Position numbers and translations under genes: made by a program
Notes under the pieces: model-generated
Told to the model about the DNA's origin: nothing
What the model saw: only the letters and a program-made list of their open reading frames with translations
Databases searched by the model: none
Shown: positions 3,185 to 14,430 of the stretch, piece after piece
How the letters are laid out: every line of letters begins with the position of its first letter
How positions within the stretch are numbered: the first letter of the stretch is position 1
Assembly: GCA_963736745.1 (NCBI GenBank)
Contig: CAVTQD010000026.1
Span: forward strand, 64,830 to 128,829
DNA: 64,000 nt
From: an uncultured Verrucomicrobiae bacterium
Lineage (GTDB): Bacteria > Verrucomicrobiota > Verrucomicrobiia > Chthoniobacterales > JAFAMB01
Direction: 5' to 3'

Positions 3185-3612
3185 GCGGGTGGTAGTTTGG
3201 GTTTGGTTTAATTGACCCTAAAAAGGCCGTACCGCCACCAGCATGCGTCATGCCATACGCTACATATCATGTACGATTAAACATTACAATTGTGTAGCCA
3301 CGTCTAGTGCAGGCATCCTTGCCGGCTCCCGCCGGAATCAGGCGGGCCGGGACCTCTTTTCTTGGCATCTGGCAAAATTTAGCCAATCGGCGTCCGTATG
3401 TAGGAAATTTTATACAGTTATCCCGGGCGGTTACGTTTGACCACACCGTGTTCCCTTCCCGAAGCTCGCCTCGGGTCCATGCTTATCCCCAAGGAGAAGG
3501 TAATATTTTAAGACCCTGGGCGCAGAAATTGCTCTTATCCCTCGCCCTGGTGTTCGGACGGCCAATCCGAGCACTCCTTAACCTTGGCAGAAACGGAATC
3601 TTGCCAATCAAC

Positions 3613-4938
3613 ATGAAACACATATTCGAAATGAAACTCTTCACACGGCTTGCTTCTGCAGGCGTTATTGCAGCTTACGCTCTCTCTTCAGGCTTGTGCT
3701 ACGCGCAACAAGCCACCCCGGCTCCAAGTCCGGCGGTCGTCTGCTGACGGCAAGGAGAGCAAGGAAGCGAAGAAAGTCGTAGAGCAACCGAAACCACCGG
3801 AACCACGATTCAAACTCTACGGCTGGATCGAGGCAGGGATCACCGGCAATCCGGACTCGCCGATCGATAGCCACAACTTCGGTCATCTGTGGACCGACCG
3901 CGCCAATGAACCGCTCCTGAATCAAATATCAATTGTCGGCGAGCGGGCTCTGGACCCGAATGCCACTGGGTTCGACTGGGGATTTAAAGCTTGGTTCATG
4001 TATGGGAGTGACGCTCGATACTCGAAATCGGTGGGATTCCTGGATCTCGTCACCAACGACCGAGTCCAGCCTGATTTTCCTGAGCTTTACGCGAGCGTCC
4101 ACATTCCGATTCCCGCAACGTCGGGGCTCGATGTGAAAGCCGGAAAGTACCAGGACCCGATGTCGGCGGAAACTTTTGATCCGCGCAACAGTGTTTTCTA
4201 TTCCCATAGCTATATTTTCAATTTCGGGATCCCTGAGAATGATACGGGTCTTCTAGCCGTACTGCATGCGAATAAATACCTCGATATTTACGCCGGAGTG
4301 AACCGTGGAGTTAATATGACGTTTAGCTGATAATAACTCCTCGGTCGCATTCGAAGGTGGGTTCGGCCTGAATTTGCTGGATGGCAATTTAACGGTCGTT
4401 GCACTCACGCACGATGGTCCGGAAGATACCCTCAACAATGTGCGACTGGCGTTATCTGAACGACATCACGACAACCTGGAAGATTACCAAGAACTTCACT
4501 TCCATCACAGATTTGAACCTGATCTATGATACTTTAGGCAACGGCAAATGGGGCGGCGGTGGTGCGCAGTATTTTACCTATGCCCTGAACGATTGGCTGC
4601 AACTTGGTGTGCGCGGCGAAATTTTTCGCGATTCACAGGGATTTTATGTCGCCCAGTTTCGCGCAAATAACGATTTCATTCACTTTGTGCGCGGCGATAA
4701 CGTCTTCCGTCCCGAATTTCCCAGCGATCCCAGCAACCTGGGGGGAGGCGAAACTACCTACTTCGAAATTACCGGTGGTGTGACCATTAAGCCGCCGCTG
4801 CCGAAACCCGTGGCCGGTTTACTGATTCGCCCTGAGGTCCGCTATGACAGGGCATTAACGGACAGATTCAAGCCGTTCGATCAGAATACCAAGCGAGACC
4901 AGTGGACATTTGGATTGGACTTAGTCCTCGAGTTCTAG
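3613..4938 (+). CDS. Putative outer-membrane beta-barrel / porin-like protein, frame interrupted at least twice as given
   Basis: Signal peptide MKHIFEMKLFTRLASAGVIAAYALSSGLCYAQQ from ATG 3613. Alternating beta-strand-like sequence follows in 3650-4330 and 4399-4938. The protein ends in ...WTFGLDLVLEF, with the C-terminal Phe typical of OM barrels. Confidence 0.55.
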
Positions 4939-4975
4939 TCGATAGTCGCAATAAAGGTTCAATTTAGACCAAAAG

Positions 4976-5004
4976 GCGCCGGCGATCTGCCGGCGCTTTT
5001 TTTT
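4976..5004 (+). terminator. Rho-independent terminator after the porin-like gene
   Basis: GCGCCGGC (4976-4983), loop GATCT, GCCGGCGC (4989-4996), then T8 (4997-5004). Confidence 0.7.
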
Positions 5005-5073
5005 GCGGTGTGCGAACGAACGGCGGCGATATGACTCTGGAACCCTTGGATGGCACGTCAAGTGCTTCTAGTG

Positions 5074-5101
5074 GTATTACGAATCTTTAGAACCGTAATA
5101 C
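5074..5101. promoter_or_regulatory. Candidate operator: 28-bp dyad GTATTA-N16-TAATAC in front of the ABC/carboxylase operon
   Basis: GTATTACG (5074-5081) and CGTAATAC (5094-5101) form a perfect 8-bp inverted repeat. The dyad lies 20-48 bp upstream of the first possible start codons of the binding-protein gene. Its geometry matches the E. coli NikR operator GTATGA-N16-TCATAC, and a NikR-family gene lies in the same operon. Confidence 0.4.
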
Positions 5102-5148
5102 TCCATCTTGTCATCCGCCTATGAACCCGTTTCGATTTTCCATGCGCT

Positions 5149-6148
5149 TTGCTTTGCGATGCTGCGTTGCGTGCCGTCGCTTTCTCCGGTCTATTAACTG
5201 TCGCGCACGCCGAGTCTCTCAAGATCGCTTATAGCGATTGGCCCGGGTGGGTCGCCTGGGAAATTGCCATCCAGAAGAACTGGTTCAAGGAGGCGGGAGT
5301 CGATGTGCAGTTCATGTGGTACGATTACGCGCCCTCCATGGACGCTTATTCGACAGGGAAGGCCGACGCCGTGTGTATGACAAACGGTGATGCTCTGGTC
5401 ACCGGCTCGACCGGCAAACCTTCTGTTGGAATTCTGATCAATGATTTCTCCAGCGGCAACGACATGATTGTCGCCAAGCCCGGAATCGATTCTGTCAAAC
5501 AACTGGCCGGCAAGAAGATTGGAGTCGAGATCGGTCTGGTGGATCATTTGCTTTTGGAGCGGGCGCTCGGGATCAGCGGATTAAGCGATGGTGACGTGAC
5601 ACTCGTCAACACACCGACTAACGAAACGCCGCAGGTACTCGCTTCCGGGGCGGTCGACGCTATCGCAGCCTGGCAACCAAATTCCGGGCAGGCGCTGAAA
5701 ACGGTTCAGGGCTCCAAGCCAATATTTCACCTCTGCCGAGGCTCCGGGATTAATCTACGATTTGCTGTACGTCTCTAGAGAAAGCCTGGAAAAGAATCGC
5801 GCAGAGTGGGCAAAAGTCGTCGCGGTCTGGTATCGCATCGTCAAGTACATGGAGGACCCAGGTAACCTGGATGAGGCTCTGAAAATTCTCGCGGCTCGCG
5901 ACAATGTGAAACCCGAAGAGTACGAGCCGTTCTTAAAAGGCACTCATATCCTATCTCTGAAGGAAGCTCTGCACCACTGGAAGAAAGGAAATGATCTCGA
6001 TTCCCTGTTTGGGTCAACTAAGAATGTCGATGATTTCAACGTCAAAAACGGCGTCTACAAGCAGCATGTGGATTTTCAAGGTTATCTGGATTCAAGCCTG
6101 ACCGAGGAATACGCAAAATCGGCCGCCGCCAAGTCAGCGAGTAAATAG
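5149..6148 (+). CDS. ABC transporter periplasmic substrate-binding protein, NMT1/THI5-like (NitT/TauT family), of the type found next to urea carboxylase genes; one frameshift as given
   Basis: [44 protein letters not shown]...[16 protein letters not shown]. Pieces 5149-5778 and 5762-6148 join near 5750. The true start is uncertain, since ATG 5121/5142 are in another frame. Confidence 0.75.
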
Positions 6149-6234
6149 TGCATCGAGTTCGGCAATTGTGCTCGTGTCGAGGGGTGGCGCCTGCGTCTGC
6201 CCGTGAAGCAACTCGAGAAAGCGAGCAAACGGGA

Positions 6235-7587
6235 ATGAATCAACGGACGGCCAATCAGGAGCGCTGGTTTAAAATCCGGGAAGAACTCTCGGGGCGCCGC
6301 GCAGGTCTTTTGATGGCGCTCTCGTTTCTGCTGCCACTGGCCATCTGGTGTATCGCCAGTTATGTGCCTTTCATTTGGCATCCGGACATTCGGCTTGAAG
6401 TCTCAGCCGATCGCACTGACGTATCGACCGTTTACACAGCGGGAGATCACGTCAGCAAGGAGTTTTTCCCAACATTTCAGAATGCTGTACGAGAGGCGAA
6501 CAATAAAATTCTGGAGAATCGAAAAATTGGTCAGAGTTCGTCCGGATTGATGGTCCGGCGAGATAATCTGAAGAAGCTGCGTCAACTTGCTCCACTGGCG
6601 ATTTCAAATGGGTGGCTTCGGCAAAACCAGCGTGAAGATGACGCAGCAATTTTTGATATCTGGAAGAAGCTTGCGACAGGCGAATTGGTGGCGAAAGAGC
6701 CTGCGCTCAATCCCGAAAACCTGGATATCATTCGTCAGGATTGGGAGATGCTTTCCGCAGCAAGCCCGACTTTTGATGCACGAAAACTGCCTGACCAGGA
6801 GCTGCTCAGCCTGGTACCGCAAGGGAAGCCATCAAATCCCTCTTATCTACCCGCGCCCCACGACGTCCTGGAGACGGGATTGCACAATTTCACTAGTGGC
6901 GGCGAATTGGGTCAGTTATCGCTTTTCAGCCGCCTCCTGATCTCGATTCGCATCGTATTTACCGGGTTCCTCCTGTCGTGTCTGATTGGTGTCCCAATCG
7001 GGATTTTCTGCGGAACATACGCGGCTTGTTCAAAGATCTCGGAGCCGTTCATTGATTTTTTCCGTTATATGCCAGCGCCCGCGTTCAGCACCCTGCTGGT
7101 GGCAATTTTTGGCGCTCATGACGAACCGAAGGTCGCACTTGTCTTCATTGGAACATTCTTCCAAATGGTGCTGGTGATTTCAAAAACGACCCGACAGCTC
7201 GACCACGCCCTTTTGGAAGCCGCGCAAACTCTCGGCGCGAAGCCCCGCCAGCTTTTTACGCATGTCGTGATTCCGGGAATTTTGCCGGAGCTCTATAACG
7301 ACCTTAGAATTCTTCTGGGCTGGTCCTGGACTTGGATGGTGATCGCGGAATTGATTGGCGTTAAGACAGGCCTGACTGAGTTTATCGAAACACAAGGGCG
7401 CTGGCGCAACTTCGACGCCGTTTTCCCCGTCATCATTTTGATTGGATTGATCGGCTTTTTTACCGATCAATTTTTGGGCTGGTTCAGAGGAATTCTATTC
7501 CCCTACACGAAGAGGGCACGCTCTGACAGCGAAGCGGGCGCGCAAAATAGAGCAACCGCCGCCGGTGAGTCAATCGCCGACAGCTGA
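6235..7587 (+). CDS. ABC transporter permease (NitT/TauT family) with long N-terminal extension
   Basis: Core permease motif EAAQTLGAKPRQLFTHVVIPGILPELYNDLRILLGWSWTWMVIAELIG. About 250 aa precede the membrane core. ATG 6235 lies inside the 6148-7587 ORF. Confidence 0.8.
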   Translation: MNQRTANQERWFKIREELSGRRAGLLMALSFLLPLAIWCIASYVPFIWHPDIRLEVSADRTDVSTVYTAGDHVSKEFFPTFQNAVREANNKILENRKIGQSSSGLMVRRDNLKKLRQLAPLAISNGWLRQNQREDDAAIFDIWKKLATGELVAKEPALNPENLDIIRQDWEMLSAASPTFDARKLPDQELLSLVPQGKPSNPSYLPAPHDVLETGLHNFTSGGELGQLSLFSRLLISIRIVFTGFLLSCLIGVPIGIFCGTYAACSKISEPFIDFFRYMPAPAFSTLLVAIFGAHDEPKVALVFIGTFFQMVLVISKTTRQLDHALLEAAQTLGAKPRQLFTHVVIPGILPELYNDLRILLGWSWTWMVIAELIGVKTGLTEFIETQGRWRNFDAVFPVIILIGLIGFFTDQFLGWFRGILFPYTKRARSDSEAGAQNRATAAGESIADS

Positions 7588-7614
7588 ATCGCCCGTCAGA
7601 CAACTAACGACCAC

Positions 7615-8517
7615 ATGAGTCAAACAACAATTGATCTTCCAGACTATCGGACGCAATCTCCCCCTGTTGCTGCGCGATTTGAGCGCCTCAAGGCGCGCCC
7701 CGTCGCTCTGGAGGTCTGTGATCTGCATAAGTACTTTCCCTCTCCGCAGGGGGAGGTGGTCGCACTGCAAAACATCGATTTCACAGTTCATCGACGCGAA
7801 TTCATGTGTGTCATCGGGGCATCTGGTTGTGGAAAATCAACGCTGATCCGAATTCTGGCCGGGCTCGAAACACCAACTGCCGGTGAGGTTTTGCTCGATA
7901 AGAAGCGGGTCAGCGGCCCCGGTCCGGAGCGTGGGATGGTTTTTCAGGGCTACACCCTTTTCCCATGGCTATCGGTCAAACAAAACGTCATGTTCGGCCT
8001 TAAAATGACCGGGCATTCCTCGAACGAGGCTGAACCGGAGGCGCGCCAATGGATTGAGATGGTCGGGTTGGCAAAGTTTGAAAACTCCTTCCCGCACCAG
8101 CTATCGGGTGGAATGAAACAACGGGTCGCCATTGCGCGCGCACTCGCCAATCAGCCGAGGGTGCTGCTGATGGATGAGCCGTTCGGAGCCCTTGATGCGC
8201 AGACGAGATGCCAGATGCAGTCTTATCTCCTCCAGATTTGGCGGAACGTCGATGTAACGATTGTTTTCATTACGCACGACCTGGATGAAGCAATTTATCT
8301 CGCCGATCGGATCCTTGTACTTAAACCCCACCCCGGCCGGGTCGATGAGATGATTGAAGTTTCGGTGCCTCGACCGCGCTCGCCTGAACAGTTCATCTCG
8401 GCGGAGTTCCTGGCAACAAAGAAACGCCTCGAAGAGCTGATCCATCCGCCCGGTGAATCGGCTGGAGATAAGCTTCCGACATTGCGGCTAACCCGTGTTG
8501 ACGACGAAGTCGAGTAG
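7615..8517 (+). CDS. ABC transporter ATP-binding protein (NitT/TauT family)
   Basis: Walker [10 protein letters not shown], signature [15 protein letters not shown], Walker [13 protein letters not shown]-loop ITHD. Confidence 0.9.
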
Positions 8518-8596
8518 GCAGCTCCCCAGTCCCATTAACCCTAAAGTCAAAGATGAATCGTGGAACCTTGGGCGTCAGTTTCTGAATCCATTTCAG

Positions 8597-9106
8597 GTGA
8601 AATCGCGAACAAAACGTAATAACGGAAATTCCGACGGCAAAGTCCAGAGAATCAGTGTCTCGCTGCCTGAGTCCGTTTTCTGCGAATTAGATCAGCTCGT
8701 TGCGGAGCGAGGTTGGGAAAGCCGCTCGAAAGCAATCTCAGTCATGGTGACTCAATCCGCCCTTGAACACCGGGAAGACAAGGGAGACACGCTCATGTCG
8801 GGCACCATCACCATCGTGTACGACGAATCAAAGGGAAGTTTATTGCAGCGTTTGGCCGAACTCGAGCGTCGTTTTCTCGATGAGGTTATCAGCTCGCTTC
8901 ATGTTCAACTAGAGAACGATCATCGAATCGAGGTCTTGCTCGTCCAAGGACCCGCTCGGATTCTCCAGAACATCGCGGACCAACTGCTCGCCTTGAAAGG
9001 GGTGAAAACCGGTAAGCTTACTCTCACCAGCATGCTTATGCCGCCACTTCATCCTCTACCCTTTCCAAGGTCGCAAGTTAACTTAAAAACCGAAGAAAGC
9101 GGTTAA
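8597..9106 (+). CDS. NikR-family (ribbon-helix-helix plus ACT-like domain) transcriptional regulator with non-canonical metal site
   Basis: RISVSLPESVFCELDQLVAERGWESRSKAISVMV matches the NikR/CopG RHH. The C-domain ...TITIVYDESKGSLLQRLAELERRFLDEVISSLHVQLENDHRIEVLLVQGPARILQNIADQLLALKGVKTGKL aligns to the NikR tetramerisation domain. The maximal ORF is 8495-9106 and GTG 8597 is the likely start. Confidence 0.7.
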   Translation: MKSRTKRNNGNSDGKVQRISVSLPESVFCELDQLVAERGWESRSKAISVMVTQSALEHREDKGDTLMSGTITIVYDESKGSLLQRLAELERRFLDEVISSLHVQLENDHRIEVLLVQGPARILQNIADQLLALKGVKTGKLTLTSMLMPPLHPLPFPRSQVNLKTEESG

Positions 9107-9180
9107 ACACAGACTTCGCAGATTTCACAGAAGACCAAAGCCAGGTTGGCGACTAACCAGGGGATCTAATATCATGACAA

Positions 9181-9913
9181 ATGCACAAGCGATCCAAGAG
9201 GTTCACATTCTTTTCGAGGAAGATTATCCCTGGCGGGGCGATGTGGTCTTACGCTCTCAAACGGCATCATACCCTCAGGGTTACCGACATCGAAAGCGGC
9301 GCAAATGTCGGAGCAATGCTCTACAACCTGAATCATTCACTCGATCGCCTAAATCTACCTGATACTCTCAAAGCTCAGCACACAGCAAAGCTGACGACCG
9401 GGAATGTGCTCTTGAGCGACATGGGACACGTTCTTTGCTCCATTTCTGCGGACACCTGTGGATGGCACGATCCGCTTGCAGGCCACTCCACGGCCAGCGC
9501 TGGTCCGGGCGAAATACGGACCATCGAGCTACCAGGAAAAACGCAACGCCTTTCACCGAAACGCTCGCGACCAATTCCTTATCGAGCTTGGCAAATGGGG
9601 ACTGGGAAAGATGGACTTGGTAGCGAACATAAACTTTTTTAGCAAAGTCACAGTCGATGCCGAGGGAAGAATGGAATTCGTAAGCGGGAATTCCGCCGCC
9701 GGCAGCTACATCGATCTGCGTGCAGAAATGGACACCCTCCTCGTCCTCAATACTTGTCAGCACCCAATGGATCCTGATCCACAGTATCACCCAAAGCCTG
9801 TGCATATCGCGGTCTGGAAATCCGACCCGCCAGCCGCAAACGATATATGCCGAGCCGCCTGTCCGGAAAACGCACGAGGATTCGCCCTAACCGAAGCACT
9901 TTTTCGTTGGTAG
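9181..9913 (+). CDS. Urea-carboxylase-associated DUF1989 protein 1 (carboxyguanidine deiminase subunit family), one frameshift as given
   Basis: [57 protein letters not shown]...DTCGWHD, then (other frame) [32 protein letters not shown]...NINFFSKV...[20 protein letters not shown]. The shift lies near 9480. Confidence 0.75.
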
Positions 9914-9969
9914 TTTCAACAGCTTGGCTTCCTGGTCTGTCGAGCTTGAGCCCCACTGGAATCACAAAT

Positions 9970-10617
9970 ATGAGCACACTGATCTATACCGAGAGCCGGC
10001 TGCGCCCGGAAGATGCCGTGTACGACTGCACGGTACTGTCCGGCGAAGCATGGATGCATGGGATAGCCGCCGGTCAAACTTTTCGGATTGTCGATCTGGA
10101 AGGCAACCAGGCAGTCGACACCCTTTTCTATAATGCCCACGATCGAACGGATCGGTACAGCGCACAAGATACCATCCGGGAACAAGGCAGTATTTATCTG
10201 ACGACCGGAACCAGGCTCATGTCGTCCGAAGGCAATGTCTTGCTAACGATCATTGCGGACACCTGTGGGCGGCACGATACCCTGGGCGGAGCGTGCTCGG
10301 CCGAGAGCAATCAGGTCCGATATGCAATCGAAAAGAAACACATGCACAGTTGCCGGGACTCCTTCCTCCTTGCGGTGGCGAAGTCGACCCAGGGCTATAC
10401 CAAGCGAGATATCACTCACAATATCAATTTTTTCATGAATGTTCCGGTTACTCCGGAGGGCGGCCTAACGTTTGCGGACGGCGTTTCCGACAAAGGTCGC
10501 TATGTCGAAATGCTCGCGGAAATGGATGTTATCGCGCTGATTTCGAATTGCCCGCAATTGAATAACCCATGCAACGCATATAATCCGACACCAATACGAT
10601 TGTTAGTCTGGGATTGA
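9970..10617 (+). CDS. Urea-carboxylase-associated DUF1989 protein 2 (carboxyguanidine deiminase subunit family)
   Basis: A paralogue of the preceding gene: [45 protein letters not shown]...[13 protein letters not shown]...NINFFMNV...[26 protein letters not shown] 9970. Confidence 0.85.
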
Positions 10618-10638
10618 GCATCGGCAGGGTCGCGCTCC

Positions 10639-13600
10639 ATGTTTACAAAAGTCCTTGTGGCCAACCGTGGCGAGATCGCCTGCCGCATAATTCGCACCTT
10701 ACACAAACTGGGCATCCGGGCTGTTTCGGTCTATTCAGACGCAGATGCACACGCGATGCACGTTGCTCTGGCAGAAGAATCGTTCCGGATCGGACCGGCC
10801 CCGGCAAAGCAGAGCTATCTAGACACCGACGGGATTCTTTCGGTGGCGAAAAACTCGGGCTGCGAGGCACTCCATCCCGGATACGGGTTTCTGAGTGAGA
10901 ACGCCGAGTTTGCGGCCGAGTGTGAAAATGCCCGTATTCGCTTCATTGGCCCGACTTCGGAACAGATAAAATCGTTCGGGCTTAAGCATGTTGCCCGCGA
11001 GCTAGCCTCAAAAGCCGGGGCGCCGCTTCTGCCCGGCACGACCCTTCTGGCGGACGCACAGGAAGCTTTAAAAGCTGCTGAGCAGATCGGATACCCGATC
11101 ATGGTCAAAAGCACGGCAGGCGGAGGCGGGATCGGACTCCGGCTCTGCAGGTCGGCAAATGAGTTGCGAGAGAGATTTGATACGGTCAAGCGTTTAGGAG
11201 AAGCCAATTTCAAACAGGGCGGAGTTTACCTCGAAAAATTTGTTGAAATTGCGCGCCATGTCGAGGTTCAGATTTTTGGGGACGGCAGAGGTCAGGTTCT
11301 GGCCGTCGGCGAACGCGATTGCTCGATCCAGCGACGCAACCAGAAGGTAATCGAGGAGACGCCGGCGCCCGACCTTTCAGACGCCGTCCGCAAACGACTC
11401 TTCGAAGCTGCCATCAGTCTGGGCAAGACGGTCAACTATGCTTCTGCCGGAACAGTAGAATTTATTTATGATAGCCTCGCGCAGACGTTTTATTTTTTAG
11501 AGGTTAACACCCGACTTCAGGTCGAACACGGCGTCACAGAAGCAGTGACCGGTATCGACCTGGTGGAATGGATGATTCGGCTTGCGGCGGGCGAACTACC
11601 TCCGCTGGAAACTCTGGTCCCCATTTGCGAGGGTCACTCTATTCAAGTCCGCATCTACGCGGAAGATCCAAACAAGAATTTCCAGCCCAGCTCGGGGCTC
11701 TTGACCGAAGTTGTCTTTCCAAAGAATGCCCGGATTGACACAGGAATTGAACGAGGAACGGAAATCTCCCCTTACTACGATCCGCTGATCGCCAAGATCA
11801 TCGTCAAAGGCAAGGACCGACCACATGCCCTGGCGAAAATGAAGGATGCCCTTCAGCAAACCCGTATCTACGGAATCGAAACGAACCAAAGCTATCTCGA
11901 ATCGGTTCTGGAAGACGAGAGGGTGACGCGTGGCGAGGTCACTACCCGGCTGCTATCATCGTTCGAATATAGACCAGCAACCTTGGATATCCTGGAGTCG
12001 GGAACTCAGACCAGCGTCCAGGATTATCCAGGCCGTTTAGGATACTGGGCCGTGGGCGTACCACCCTCCGGTCCGATGGATGCACTCGCGTTTCGTTTCG
12101 GTAATCGACTCCTTTCAAATGCTCCCGTGGCTGCTGGATTGGAAATCACAATTTCTGGTCCGACGCTCCGATTCAATACCGACTGCGAATTTTGTCTAAC
12201 CGGCGCCTCGATGAAGGCCGACCTGGACGGCAATGACATCGCTTTCTGGACGGTCGTTCAGGCACGGGCGGGACAAACATTGAGGGTTGGACAAATCAGG
12301 GGAGGCGGCGCTCGAGGCATATCTCCTGGTGAAAGGCGGCCTGGATATTCCCGACTATCTCAATAGCAAGTCGACATTCGCTCTGGGTCGATTCGGAGGC
12401 CACGGGGGACGGGTTCTTCGGGCAGGAGATGTCCTCCGCCTTCGGAAAGACAGTCAAAACGTCTTATCCGAACCCGAAAGGAGTGCGCACACTCCTCGGG
12501 TTCTGCCAACCTCAATCGTTCCGAACTATTCCAATCGATGGGAGCTTGGAGTTTTGTATGGACCGCATGGCGCTCCTGACTTTTTTACCGCCGAGTACAT
12601 CGACACATTTTTCCTCACCGAATGGAAAGTTCACTACAACTCGAATCGGACAGGGGTCCGATTGATCGGCCCCAAGCCGAACTGGACTCGAACGGACGGC
12701 GGTGAAGCGGGTCTGCATCCGTCGAATATCCATGACAATGCGTACGCTGTGGGCGCGGTCGACTTCACCGGCGATATGCCTATCCTGCTTGGACCGGATG
12801 GCCCAAGTCTGGGTGGATTCGTGTGTCCGGCCGTTGTGGTGGATGCGGAACTCTGGAAACTTGGACAGCTCAAGGCGGAGGATACCGTACGTTTCCGCCG
12901 GTTGACGGTCGTTGAAGCCGAAAAGTTGAAGTTTGCGCAGGAACATGAAATTGAGAATGTTAGAGCCTTTCCCGAGCGCTCCAGCGATCGTTTCAACGTT
13001 TAGCGCAGGCTCAGGCGACGAAGCGATCCTCGCCGGAACTCGAGCCGGCCGGAGATCGGCCCCGCGTGGTCTACAGAGGGTCCGGCGACTCTTACATCCT
13101 GGTGGAATACGGACCCATTGTTTTGGATTTGAATCTCCGTTTCCGAATCCACGCCCTGATGCAATGGATGCAGGGCAATCAACTTCCGGGGATAATCGAT
13201 CTGACCCCCGGAATTCGGTCGTTACAGGTCCATTTTGACACCAGGAAGATTCACCTGAAGGATTTGCTCGCCGTTCTGCTGGCCGCCGAAAGGGAACTGC
13301 CGCTTGCCGATGAGATGGAAGTTCCGACGCGCATAGTTCACATGCCGCTCTCATGGGAAGATGAATCGACCTTGCTGGCGATTCAGAAATATATGCAGTC
13401 CGTTCGTGCCGACGCACCCTGGTGCCCAAGCAATCTCGAGTTTATTCGGCGCGTGAACGGCCTCGAGAGCATCGAAGATGTAAAGAAAATTGTCTTCGAT
13501 GCCAGTTACCTCGTTCTGGGTCTTGGCGACGTGTACCTGGGTGCTCCAGTCGCCGTTCCTATCGACCCGCGGCACCGATTGGTTACGACGAAATATAATC

Positions 13601-14277
13601 CTGCCAGGACCTGGACGCCAGAAAATGCGGTCGGCATCGGCGGCGCTTACCTGTGCATCTACGGAATGGAAGGTCCCGGCGGTTACCAGTTCGTCGGTCG
13701 TACGGTTCAGGTCTGGAACCGTTTCCATGTGACGAAGAATTTCGAGGCCGGCAAACCTTGGTTACTTCGTTTTTTCGATCAGATTCGATTCTATCCTGTT
13801 TCCGCGGAGCAATTGCTTCGTCACAGGGAGGATTTCTTGGCCGGTAAATTCAACCTGGCGATTGAGGAAGAAACGTTTCGGCTCAGCGAGTACCACGCTT
13901 TTTTGAACCAGATCGCGCCCGAGGCGGCAGCGTTCAAGGCGGAACAACAGGCCGCTTTCGAAGCCGAACGGGAACGCTGGACTTCCACGGAGTTCGTTCC
14001 CGCGGAAGACACGGGTTCAACGCCCATCCAGGAGGAGGTGCAGTTACCTGAGGGCGGATCGTTCATCGACGCACCGGTTGCCGGCAATCTGTGGAAGTTG
14101 ATGGCAAATTCAGGGGATCAGGTTCAACCTGACCAACCGGTAGCGGTCATCGAATCAATGAAGATGGAAATGCAGGTCTGCGCAACGCGCAGCGGCACGG
14201 TCCATTCGGTATTGTGCAAGGAATTTTCTCCAGTTTCTCAAGGGCAGCATCTCTTCATCATCGAAGTCCTGCCATAG
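10639..14277 (+). CDS. Urea/guanidine carboxylase (biotin carboxylase + allophanate-hydrolase-subunit-like carboxyltransferase + biotinyl domain), frame interrupted twice as given
   Basis: The total span is 3639 nt, about 1213 aa. The N-terminal biotin carboxylase reads [20 protein letters not shown]...[13 protein letters not shown]...[14 protein letters not shown]. The KipA/KipI-like parts lie in 12287-13003 and 13066-14277. The C-terminal biotin attachment motif is [12 protein letters not shown]. Frame order is 1, 2, 1, with shifts near 12300 and 13010-13060. Confidence 0.85.
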
Positions 14278-14430
14278 GATCAGATCATGAATGGAACCAA
14301 GATTTGTTTTTGATGGGCCCTGGGATTTCAATCGATTCCACCCTGTCCTTTCCTGTTGTCTGATCCGGAGTATAGTTCGGAACTTGAAGAGAGCTTGAAA
14401 ACTCAGCCTCTTAAGCCAAGGAGCAAAATT

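Follow-up and report, generated by a model that had tools for sequence, protein, structure and literature searches.

What does a NikR-type regulator control, and which signal might it answer to, when most of its nickel ligands are gone? This question is raised by a gene at 8597..9106 (+ strand) of a 64,000-nt stretch of contig CAVTQD010000026.1 (positions 64,830 to 128,829; hereafter the window), which belongs to the genome assembly GCA_963736745.1 of an uncultured Verrucomicrobiae bacterium of the Chthoniobacterales (5.84 Mb in 64 contigs, 76% complete). The gene encodes a protein of 169 amino acids in an intact frame, with a GTG start at 8597 that coincides with the called starts of its homologues, and it lies within a predicted operon for the carboxylation of guanidine. 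Sequence comparison suggests that this protein of the NikR superfamily is probably independent of nickel and serves as a dedicated local repressor of the operon, and an effector is proposed for it below. Repression of the operon and independence from nickel both appear very likely, because the protein is homologous to NikR, its putative operator lies over the predicted transcription start, the metal-binding residues are lost, and a single target is found in the genome.

NikR fold and loss of the metal sites

By homology and predicted structure, the product of 8597-9106 is a member of the NikR family, with a ribbon-helix-helix (RHH) domain (residues ~16-60), an ACT-like NikR_C domain (residues 66-144), and a conserved C-terminal tail that contains P149-P150-L-H152; a tetramer is predicted. 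The Pfam NikR_C profile (PF08753) was matched at 7e-23, with coverage of positions 2-77 of its 77, and the match to RHH_1 was marginal (20.0 bits vs. a cut-off of 20.5). The protein also scored 111.9 with the NCBIfam model NF003381 ("nickel-responsive transcriptional regulator NikR"), exceeding the cut-off of 105. Searches of the PDB with phmmer returned NikRs only, with NikR from P. horikoshii (2bj1) as the top match (3e-30), and the regulator aligned from residue 16-18 with the RHH domains of the solved NikRs. Two AlphaFold2 (AF2) monomer models, which were built from 20 and 71 sequences, reached a mean pLDDT of 76-78 (~90 for the C-domain), with RHH helices at residues 25-38 and 43-60/62 (pLDDT 84-93) and a beta-alpha-beta-beta-alpha-beta topology in the C-domain; the C-terminal tail was of low confidence in both. 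When compared with the PDB by Foldseek, all of the top 50 matches were NikR, with an rmsd of 0.8-1.3 Å and target-normalised TM-scores of 0.86-0.96 against NikR C-domains. The N-terminal ribbon-helix-helix and the likeness of the C-domain to the tetramerisation/metal domain of NikR, both of which had been proposed in a preliminary description of the locus, were thus borne out.

E. coli NikR binds nickel with high affinity through four square-planar ligands, namely His76', His87, His89, and Cys95 (PMC7055735). The phmmer alignment to 2bj1 placed R91, H102, Q104, and R110 of the regulator opposite the equivalents of H76, H87, H89, and C95, which agrees with the preliminary description that three of the four ligands are lost, that only the His87 equivalent is kept, and that His89 and Cys95 are replaced by Gln and Arg. 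The same description had offered either Arg or Phe for the His76 equivalent; Arg (R91) is correct and Phe is not. The residues of the low-affinity/K+ site in E. coli (E30 and D34) correspond to K45 and V49 in the regulator, and the clade consensus at these positions is Q or K, then E, vs. E and D in canonical NikRs. Furthermore, query position 77, which is a 100% conserved His in canonical NikRs, is Glu in the regulator, and no Cys is conserved across the tail-bearing clade that is described below. According to the sequence alignment, the regulator possesses neither the high-affinity Ni site nor the low-affinity/K+ site of a functional NikR. Ligands that are conserved but offset, which had been named beforehand as the outcome that would speak against such a loss, were not found in the alignment, as no alternative His/Cys constellation aligned with the Ni site.

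Of the 121 closest sequences, which comprise the query and 120 homologues, 107 had the R/H/Q/R combination. It represents the set of the Chthoniobacterales, including the regulator at 8597-9106, and the sets found among operon-linked relatives were RHQR, RHLT, RHQT, RHQM, HHQT, RNLT, xHFS, and RRLV. The idea that R/H/Q/R forms a new anion-binding pocket was dropped because these positions vary among subclades that share the same operon and operator. Judging from the alignment, the old Ni site has decayed and was not rebuilt. Because the former ligand positions vary between subclades, any new effector site probably lies outside of it.

A distinct clade linked to guanidine carboxylase operons

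A search of 1.84 billion cluster representatives yielded 1172 relatives of the regulator. Among the best 150, the closest ~90 nearly all lacked the canonical HHHC ligand set and carried many different residue sets instead, and HHHC sequences predominated only below ~E 1e-25. A FastTree phylogeny of 138 near-full-length cluster representatives separated all 59 HHHC sequences, together with two others, from 77 non-HHHC sequences with a support of 0.98. The non-HHHC side carried a C-terminal extension, [ILM]PP[LIV]H (P149, P150, and H152 in the query), that is missing in canonical NikRs; Q or K replaced Glu30; and the His at query position 77 was lost. Residues E96, Q117, and P119 were invariant on this side, and the RHH strand residues R18, S20, and S22 were conserved. 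On phylogenetic grounds, the regulator is not an isolated degenerate copy but part of a large clade distinct from canonical NikR. By ferredoxin-fold topology, beta1 and beta2 begin with A68 and E96, respectively, beta3 ends with Q117 to P119, and beta4 is followed by the tail; from the strand order alone, these clade-invariant elements appear to group at one end of the sheet, with the old Ni site at the other. No other NikR_C gene was identified in the same assembly (76% complete, 64 contigs).

Annotation with Pfam and NCBIfam gave the gene order BBP2 porin, promoter region, substrate-binding protein (SBP), permease, ATPase, regulator, TIGR03425, TIGR03424, and TIGR02712 carboxylase, which confirms that the regulator sits between an ABC importer, here of the NitT/TauT type, and the DUF1989 and carboxylase genes. 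All of the operon genes are on the + strand. The importer consists of an NMT1/THI5-like SBP (5121..6148; best NCBIfam match TIGR03427, "urea-carboxylase-associated" SBP), a BPD_transp_1 permease (6148..7587), and an ATPase (7615..8517). Downstream of the regulator are a cgdA-like DUF1989 gene (9181..9913; TIGR03425, UAAP1), a cgdB-like DUF1989 gene (9970..10617; TIGR03424, UAAP2; 338.6 bits vs. a cut-off of 284.7) with a likely ATG start at 9970 inside the open reading frame (ORF) 9847-10617, and a gene for a biotin-dependent carboxylase of the urea/guanidine carboxylase family (10639..14277; TIGR02712).

Guanidine carboxylases are defined by an Asp at the position of K. lactis urea carboxylase residue 1584 and by Asp rather than Asn at residue 1330 (Palatinszky et al., PMC11410670). 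The carboxylase was aligned to the K. lactis structures 3va7 and 5i8i (index offset 593), and it contained Asp at both positions, in GLGDVYLG for 1584 and in AVDFTGD for 1330, where K. lactis reads AINFTGD. Asp was also found at position 1330 in 137 of 137 related loci in which the motif was present. The genes for the heteromeric carboxyguanidine deiminase, CgdA and CgdB, are both present as judged by TIGR03425 and TIGR03424, with the cgdA frame interrupted in the assembly. These diagnostic residues and gene families assign the pathway to guanidine and not to urea. The gene for allophanate hydrolase is located outside the operon (contig C19:217898-219491) and is split into two frames; in an alphaproteobacterial locus (L141) and a Bacteroidales locus (L172), it directly follows the carboxylase gene inside the operon.

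The neighborhood of a NikR-like gene, DUF1989 genes, and a carboxylase gene recurs widely, a check that the preliminary description had suggested. The regulator was located directly upstream of the DUF1989 pair and the carboxylase gene on the same strand in ~78 of 80 RHQR-like loci (L001-L080; Verrucomicrobiota and a few Gammaproteobacteria), in 75 of 80 xHFS loci (L092-L171; 80 retained from 558 matches), with the remaining five on truncated contigs, and in all three RRLV loci from Bacteroidales metagenome-assembled genomes (L172-L174). The xHFS loci came from Alphaproteobacteria (Erythrobacter, Novosphingobium, Sphingomonas, and Phenylobacterium), Myxococcota, Phycisphaeraceae (Phycisphaerae), and Steroidobacteraceae. 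Counted at the species level, the regulator is found directly upstream of cgdA-cgdB and the carboxylase gene in at least 150 of 163 loci, which come from five phyla. Of 151 genomes that were drawn evenly across the Verrucomicrobiota, 17 contained cgdB, and in 13 of these a tail-type regulator was encoded within 7 kb; the 134 genomes without cgdB in this sample had no such regulator. Other NikR_C matches in the sample ended at model position ~143, i.e., were canonical and tail-less. In one family of Verrucomicrobiota, the regulator gene was ~6 kb away from cgdA-cgdB and divergent (G054:C1:1793084-1800737, G057:C23:123750-131413, and G096:C102:14566-22300).

Predicted operator and promoter at the head of the operon

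The intergenic region upstream of the SBP gene contained a 28-bp dyad at 5074..5101 (GTATTACG-N12-CGTAATAC, equivalent to GTATTA-N16-TAATAC), which is a perfect 8+8 inverted repeat and a predicted binding site for a tetramer; the form in the clade is GTATTAC-N14-GTAATAC. The operator of E. coli NikR is GTATGA-N16-TCATAC (PMC7055735), and the dyad shows the same NikR-type geometry of two inverted half-sites of ~6 bp that are separated by a gap of 16 bp and span 28 bp in total. The pattern GTAWTA-N16-TAWTAC had a single match in the 5.84-Mb genome, at 5074-5101, and the reversed-pattern control had none. Across the related loci, 244 dyads (two or fewer mismatches) were detected in 155 of 164 loci vs. 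10 in shuffled sequence, with a half-site consensus of (G/T)TATTAC(G)(A)(T)(T). The dyads were located within ~120 nt upstream of the SBP gene where the importer adjoins, or else of the regulator gene. Alphaproteobacterial loci contained two to four copies each. In some of these loci, an extra dyad was observed upstream of a divergent gene for a membrane protein of the fatty acid hydroxylase family (PF04116), as at L141:1728-1755, and comparable sites occurred near 1600-1800 in L097, L098, L143, L151, L165, and L169; the PF04116 gene is a possible additional member of the regulon.

A putative sigma54-type promoter lies at 5051..5067 (+ strand; TGGCACGTCAAGTGCTT), with GG at 5052-5053 and GC at 5064-5065 (GG-N10-GC). 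Such a promoter was recognized by a -24 GG and a -12 GC with 10-nt spacing (TGGCAC-N5-TTGCW) and by the occurrence of RpoN in the genome, where rpoN is located at C17:161131-162492. We infer that 5051..5067 functions as a sigma54 promoter. The dyad starts 9 bp past the -12 element, and the predicted transcription start (~5076-5078) lies within the operator, so a bound protein should block transcription of the operon. The motif GG[CA][ACG][CT]N6TGC[TA] was present within -40..+45 of 42 of 76 dyads, vs. 0.9 expected from motif density, and it occurred in two registers. In the first register, the motif starts 19-23 nt before the dyad, and the dyad covers the transcription start as it does at 5074-5101; in the second, which was found in Verrucomicrobiales, the motif starts 33 nt after the dyad start, and the dyad is just upstream of the -24 element.

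The position of the dyad in the genome also bears on whether the protein could still sense a metal with relocated ligands such as H102, H152, H58, and E96. In one version of this explanation, the regulator would be a nickel-sparing switch that turns off the ATP-costly, nickel-independent route when nickel serves urease or guanidinase. This explanation is improbable, although the genome does encode a urease alpha subunit and no canonical NikR was found in the 76%-complete assembly, the protein exceeds the NCBIfam equivalog cut-off for NikR, and conservation across the clade is high for H102 (the H87 equivalent) and H152 (91-100%) and considerable for H58 (70-97%). However, the protein has lost the E30 site and the position-77 His along with three high-affinity ligands out of four, no Cys is conserved, and the former ligand positions drift between subclades. 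A pattern search of the whole assembly detected the dyad at no urease, nickel-transport, or other locus, and the urease locus is on another contig without a dyad. No association with nickel genes was found, since the sole dyad lies at the guanidine operon, and the regulator has the importer, CgdAB, and carboxylase genes as its neighbors. The clade likewise tracks cgdB and not nickel genes, and it alternates with a guanidine riboswitch as described in the following section.

Alternation with guanidine-I and coexistence with guanidine-II riboswitches

No Rfam family reached its gathering score in the 64-kb window, and no riboswitch did so in 16 related loci except for guanidine-II in gammaproteobacterial relatives; the Rfam matches in the window and these loci together were limited to one tRNA gene and gammaproteobacterial guanidine-II. 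An overlooked riboswitch was considered and rejected, as Rfam gathering thresholds applied to the window, the 16 related loci, and whole genomes gave gammaproteobacterial guanidine-II only. Guanidine-I was absent by Rfam from all nine of the regulator-bearing genomes searched (G000, G054, G151, G152, G153, G229, G275, G005, and G081). Among 151 genomes of Alphaproteobacteria, eight contained cgdB above the cut-off, two of these with the regulator adjacent, and one further genome had a lower-scoring cgdB with the regulator adjacent. Of five regulator-less alphaproteobacterial genomes tested, four carried guanidine-I at the operon head, 2.8-3.7 kb upstream of cgdB and in the same orientation. 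With guanidine-I in none of nine regulator-bearing genomes and in four of five regulator-less ones, the protein-operator pair and the guanidine-I aptamer thus alternate at the same operon-head position.

The gammaproteobacterial operons harbored both types of element. A guanidine-II (mini-ykkC) riboswitch was identified between cgdB and the carboxylase gene in L066 (L066:11877-11924; 42.5 bits in Rfam vs. a gathering threshold of 32) and, by motif search, in L057 (L057:2438), L059 (L059:5973), and L063 (L063:11879). The combination of the NikR-like gene, the dyad at the head, and guanidine-II would give a two-layer control of these operons.

This coexistence is relevant to a second explanation, in which the operon and operator are the same and the signal is nitrogen status or a partner protein. 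Candidates would be 2-oxoglutarate, glutamine, or a PII- or GS-type protein that docks on the PPxH tail. Guanidine-II already senses guanidine in the gammaproteobacterial operons, the old ligand pocket is not conserved, and outside the core, clade-specific invariance is limited to a short, flexible, low-pLDDT tail that resembles a docking peptide. On the other hand, the abutting sigma54 promoter would already supply an input of nitrogen status, a single genomic target and strict co-occurrence with cgdB form a pathway-specific rather than a global pattern, and the regulator occupies the position that guanidine-I has in operons without the regulator. A signal of nitrogen status or a partner protein is hence considered unlikely, albeit less so than a metal.

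Proposed mode of regulation and effector

The reuse of the NikR fold without nickel for the control of this operon, as the preliminary description had suggested, is supported by the synteny, a conserved operator of NikR geometry that is unique in the genome, the replacement of Ni, K+, and second-shell residues across the clade, the lack of another NikR_C gene in the assembly, and the absence of the dyad from nickel genes. By homology with NikR, the ACT-like C-domains would assemble into a tetramer in which a pair of ribbon-helix-helix dimers reads both half-sites of GTATTAC-N14-GTAATAC. The regulator bound at 5074-5101 would block the sigma54 promoter and thereby transcription of all operon genes, its own among them. 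The promoter presumably adds control by nitrogen limitation, and the repressor would serve as the pathway-specific gate.

Release from DNA could be brought about by guanidine or a pathway intermediate (carboxyguanidine or allophanate), a proposal for which we regard the chances as even. Guanidine or an intermediate is favored as the effector because the regulator is tied strictly to this pathway and stands in for a guanidine aptamer. Its site may have evolved in the ACT-like tetramer at E96, Q117-G-P119, and the C-terminal PPxH tail. The regulator would then do at the DNA level what guanidine-I does at the RNA level, with mutual displacement of the two across at least five phyla.

Alternatively, the protein could be an autorepressor that is independent of any effector, with the C-domain as a tetramerization scaffold that damps the level of the operon and with induction left to the sigma54 activator or, in certain lineages, to a riboswitch. 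Many RHH repressors function without a small-molecule ligand. The regulator gene is inside the operon that it would control, which amounts to negative autoregulation, and the former site has decayed with no conserved pocket identifiable. However, E96, Q117, P119, and the PPxH tail are conserved although they are dispensable in canonical NikR, the regulator replaces guanidine-I at operon heads, and a constitutive repressor would leave many riboswitch-less lineages with no substrate control. We therefore give this alternative as little weight as the relocated metal site.

Several observations weigh against a repressor that is released by guanidine or an intermediate. The former ligand positions vary between subclades and define no new site, and guanidinium is a cation for which no conserved acidic or aromatic pocket is identifiable without a tetramer structure. 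Where the regulator and guanidine-II occur in the same gammaproteobacterial operon, two guanidine sensors would partly duplicate each other, and this coexistence hints that the regulator answers to another signal. In canonical NikR, the liganded form is the one that binds DNA, as in a co-repressor system, and induction of a catabolic operon calls for the reverse response. At the nine loci where the dyad is upstream of the -24 element, the role of the protein may be architectural or activating. Four genomes of Verrucomicrobiota and one to two of Alphaproteobacteria contained cgdB but neither the regulator nor a riboswitch. The former group comprised G002, G010, G013, and G136, which belong to one genus, carry three adjacent DUF1989 genes, and lacked a tail-type regulator, guanidine-I, and guanidine-II. 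Finally, the frames of the operon are broken at ~9 places in the assembly.

State of the operon and the adjacent porin gene

Compared with the relatives L001, L003, and L004, the region 3600-14300 contained nine single-base (+1) insertions in coding sequence: two in the porin gene (~4328 and ~4441), one in the SBP gene (~5725), one at the 3' end of the permease gene (~7524), two in cgdA (~9225 and ~9495), and three in the carboxylase gene (~12315, ~12955, and ~13035). Small indels relative to the same loci were also noted near 5111 and 5167. The insertions split the porin, SBP (ORFs 5149-5778 and 5762-6148), cgdA (ORFs 9181-9642 and 9458-9913, both of which matched TIGR03425), and carboxylase (three ORFs) genes into overlapping ORFs, and none occurred in the regulator gene. 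They probably represent consensus errors of the assembly and not gene decay, because all are +1 (mostly in runs of 2-3 nt), the allophanate hydrolase gene is split as well, and the assembly is only 76% complete despite consisting of no more than 64 contigs.

A gene for an OmpL-like BBP2 porin (3650-4938), also split in the assembly, is located directly upstream of the operon, a location that the closest relatives share (L001-L005 and L008). It has its own intrinsic terminator at 4976..4996 (+ strand), a G+C-rich hairpin followed by a T-run (ggcgccggcgatctgccggcgc ttttttttg) that was identified by a hairpin scan and that parts the porin gene from the operon promoter. Because no dyad precedes the porin gene, the porin is probably outside the regulon. 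It may provide an entry route across the outer membrane.

Comparison with known systems and implications

The regulator shares with the canonical NikRs that were compared (E. coli 1q5v/2hzv, P. horikoshii 2bj1, and H. pylori 2ca9/6mrj) the combination of RHH and ACT-like NikR_C domains, a conserved Arg in the RHH strand (R18), 41-42% identity to P. horikoshii NikR, and a C-domain that superimposes at ~1 Å rmsd. Its operator resembles that of E. coli NikR in its length of 28 bp and in having half-sites of 6-7 bp about two helical turns apart. In contrast, H76, H89, C95, E30, and the position-77 His are replaced in the regulator, a PPxH tail is added, the clade is separate (support 0.98), and the predicted target is a guanidine carboxylase operon and not genes for nickel transport or nickel enzymes.

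The operon itself is similar to those under guanidine-I (ykkC, RF00442) of the Pseudomonas syringae type, which also contain an ABC importer, CgdAB, an Asp1330 carboxylase, and, as in many of the relatives here, an allophanate hydrolase, with the regulatory element at the head of the operon. It differs in that the proposed control relies on a repressor protein with a DNA operator at the promoter instead of an RNA aptamer. Dual control is known from other nitrogen-scavenging operons, such as atzDEF with NtrC and AtzR/cyanuric acid, and the yeast DUR genes are induced by allophanate. The logic proposed here would be the same, namely a promoter for nitrogen limitation (sigma54) together with a regulator that is specific for a pathway substrate or intermediate. 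Those regulators are LysR-type or fungal factors, whereas the present one would use an RHH/ACT NikR fold and a candidate effector.

Riboswitches are the sole known guanidine receptors, and a 2025 review asked whether guanidine-binding transcription factors exist (PMC12186494). A full-text literature search found no publication that links NikR, CopG, or RHH proteins with guanidine, urea carboxylase, or allophanate. The tail-bearing, nickel-less clade is a concrete candidate for such a transcription factor, with a defined 28-bp operator, and it occurs in cultured hosts (Sphingomonas, Novosphingobium, Erythrobacter, Pelagicoccus, and Rubritalea). That it represents the first protein receptor for guanidine or a carboxylated intermediate is proposed tentatively, with slightly less than even confidence. 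If true, the protein and its operator would respond to guanidine-type compounds and could serve together as a biosensor part.

The homologues P0002-P0121 are labeled "nickel-responsive transcriptional regulator" by JGI despite the absence of the nickel ligands, and annotation pipelines will give the protein studied here this name as well, since it exceeds the NF003381 cut-off. This is a systematic annotation error, by which such genes inflate the inferred nickel regulons and hide a regulator of the nitrogen cycle. NikR has been described as the only metal-regulated RHH protein (PMC7055735), and the family is treated as a nickel-only sensor (2026 preprint, bioRxiv 10.64898/2026.05.01.721428). 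The clade described here challenges the view of NikR as a purely nickel-specific family.

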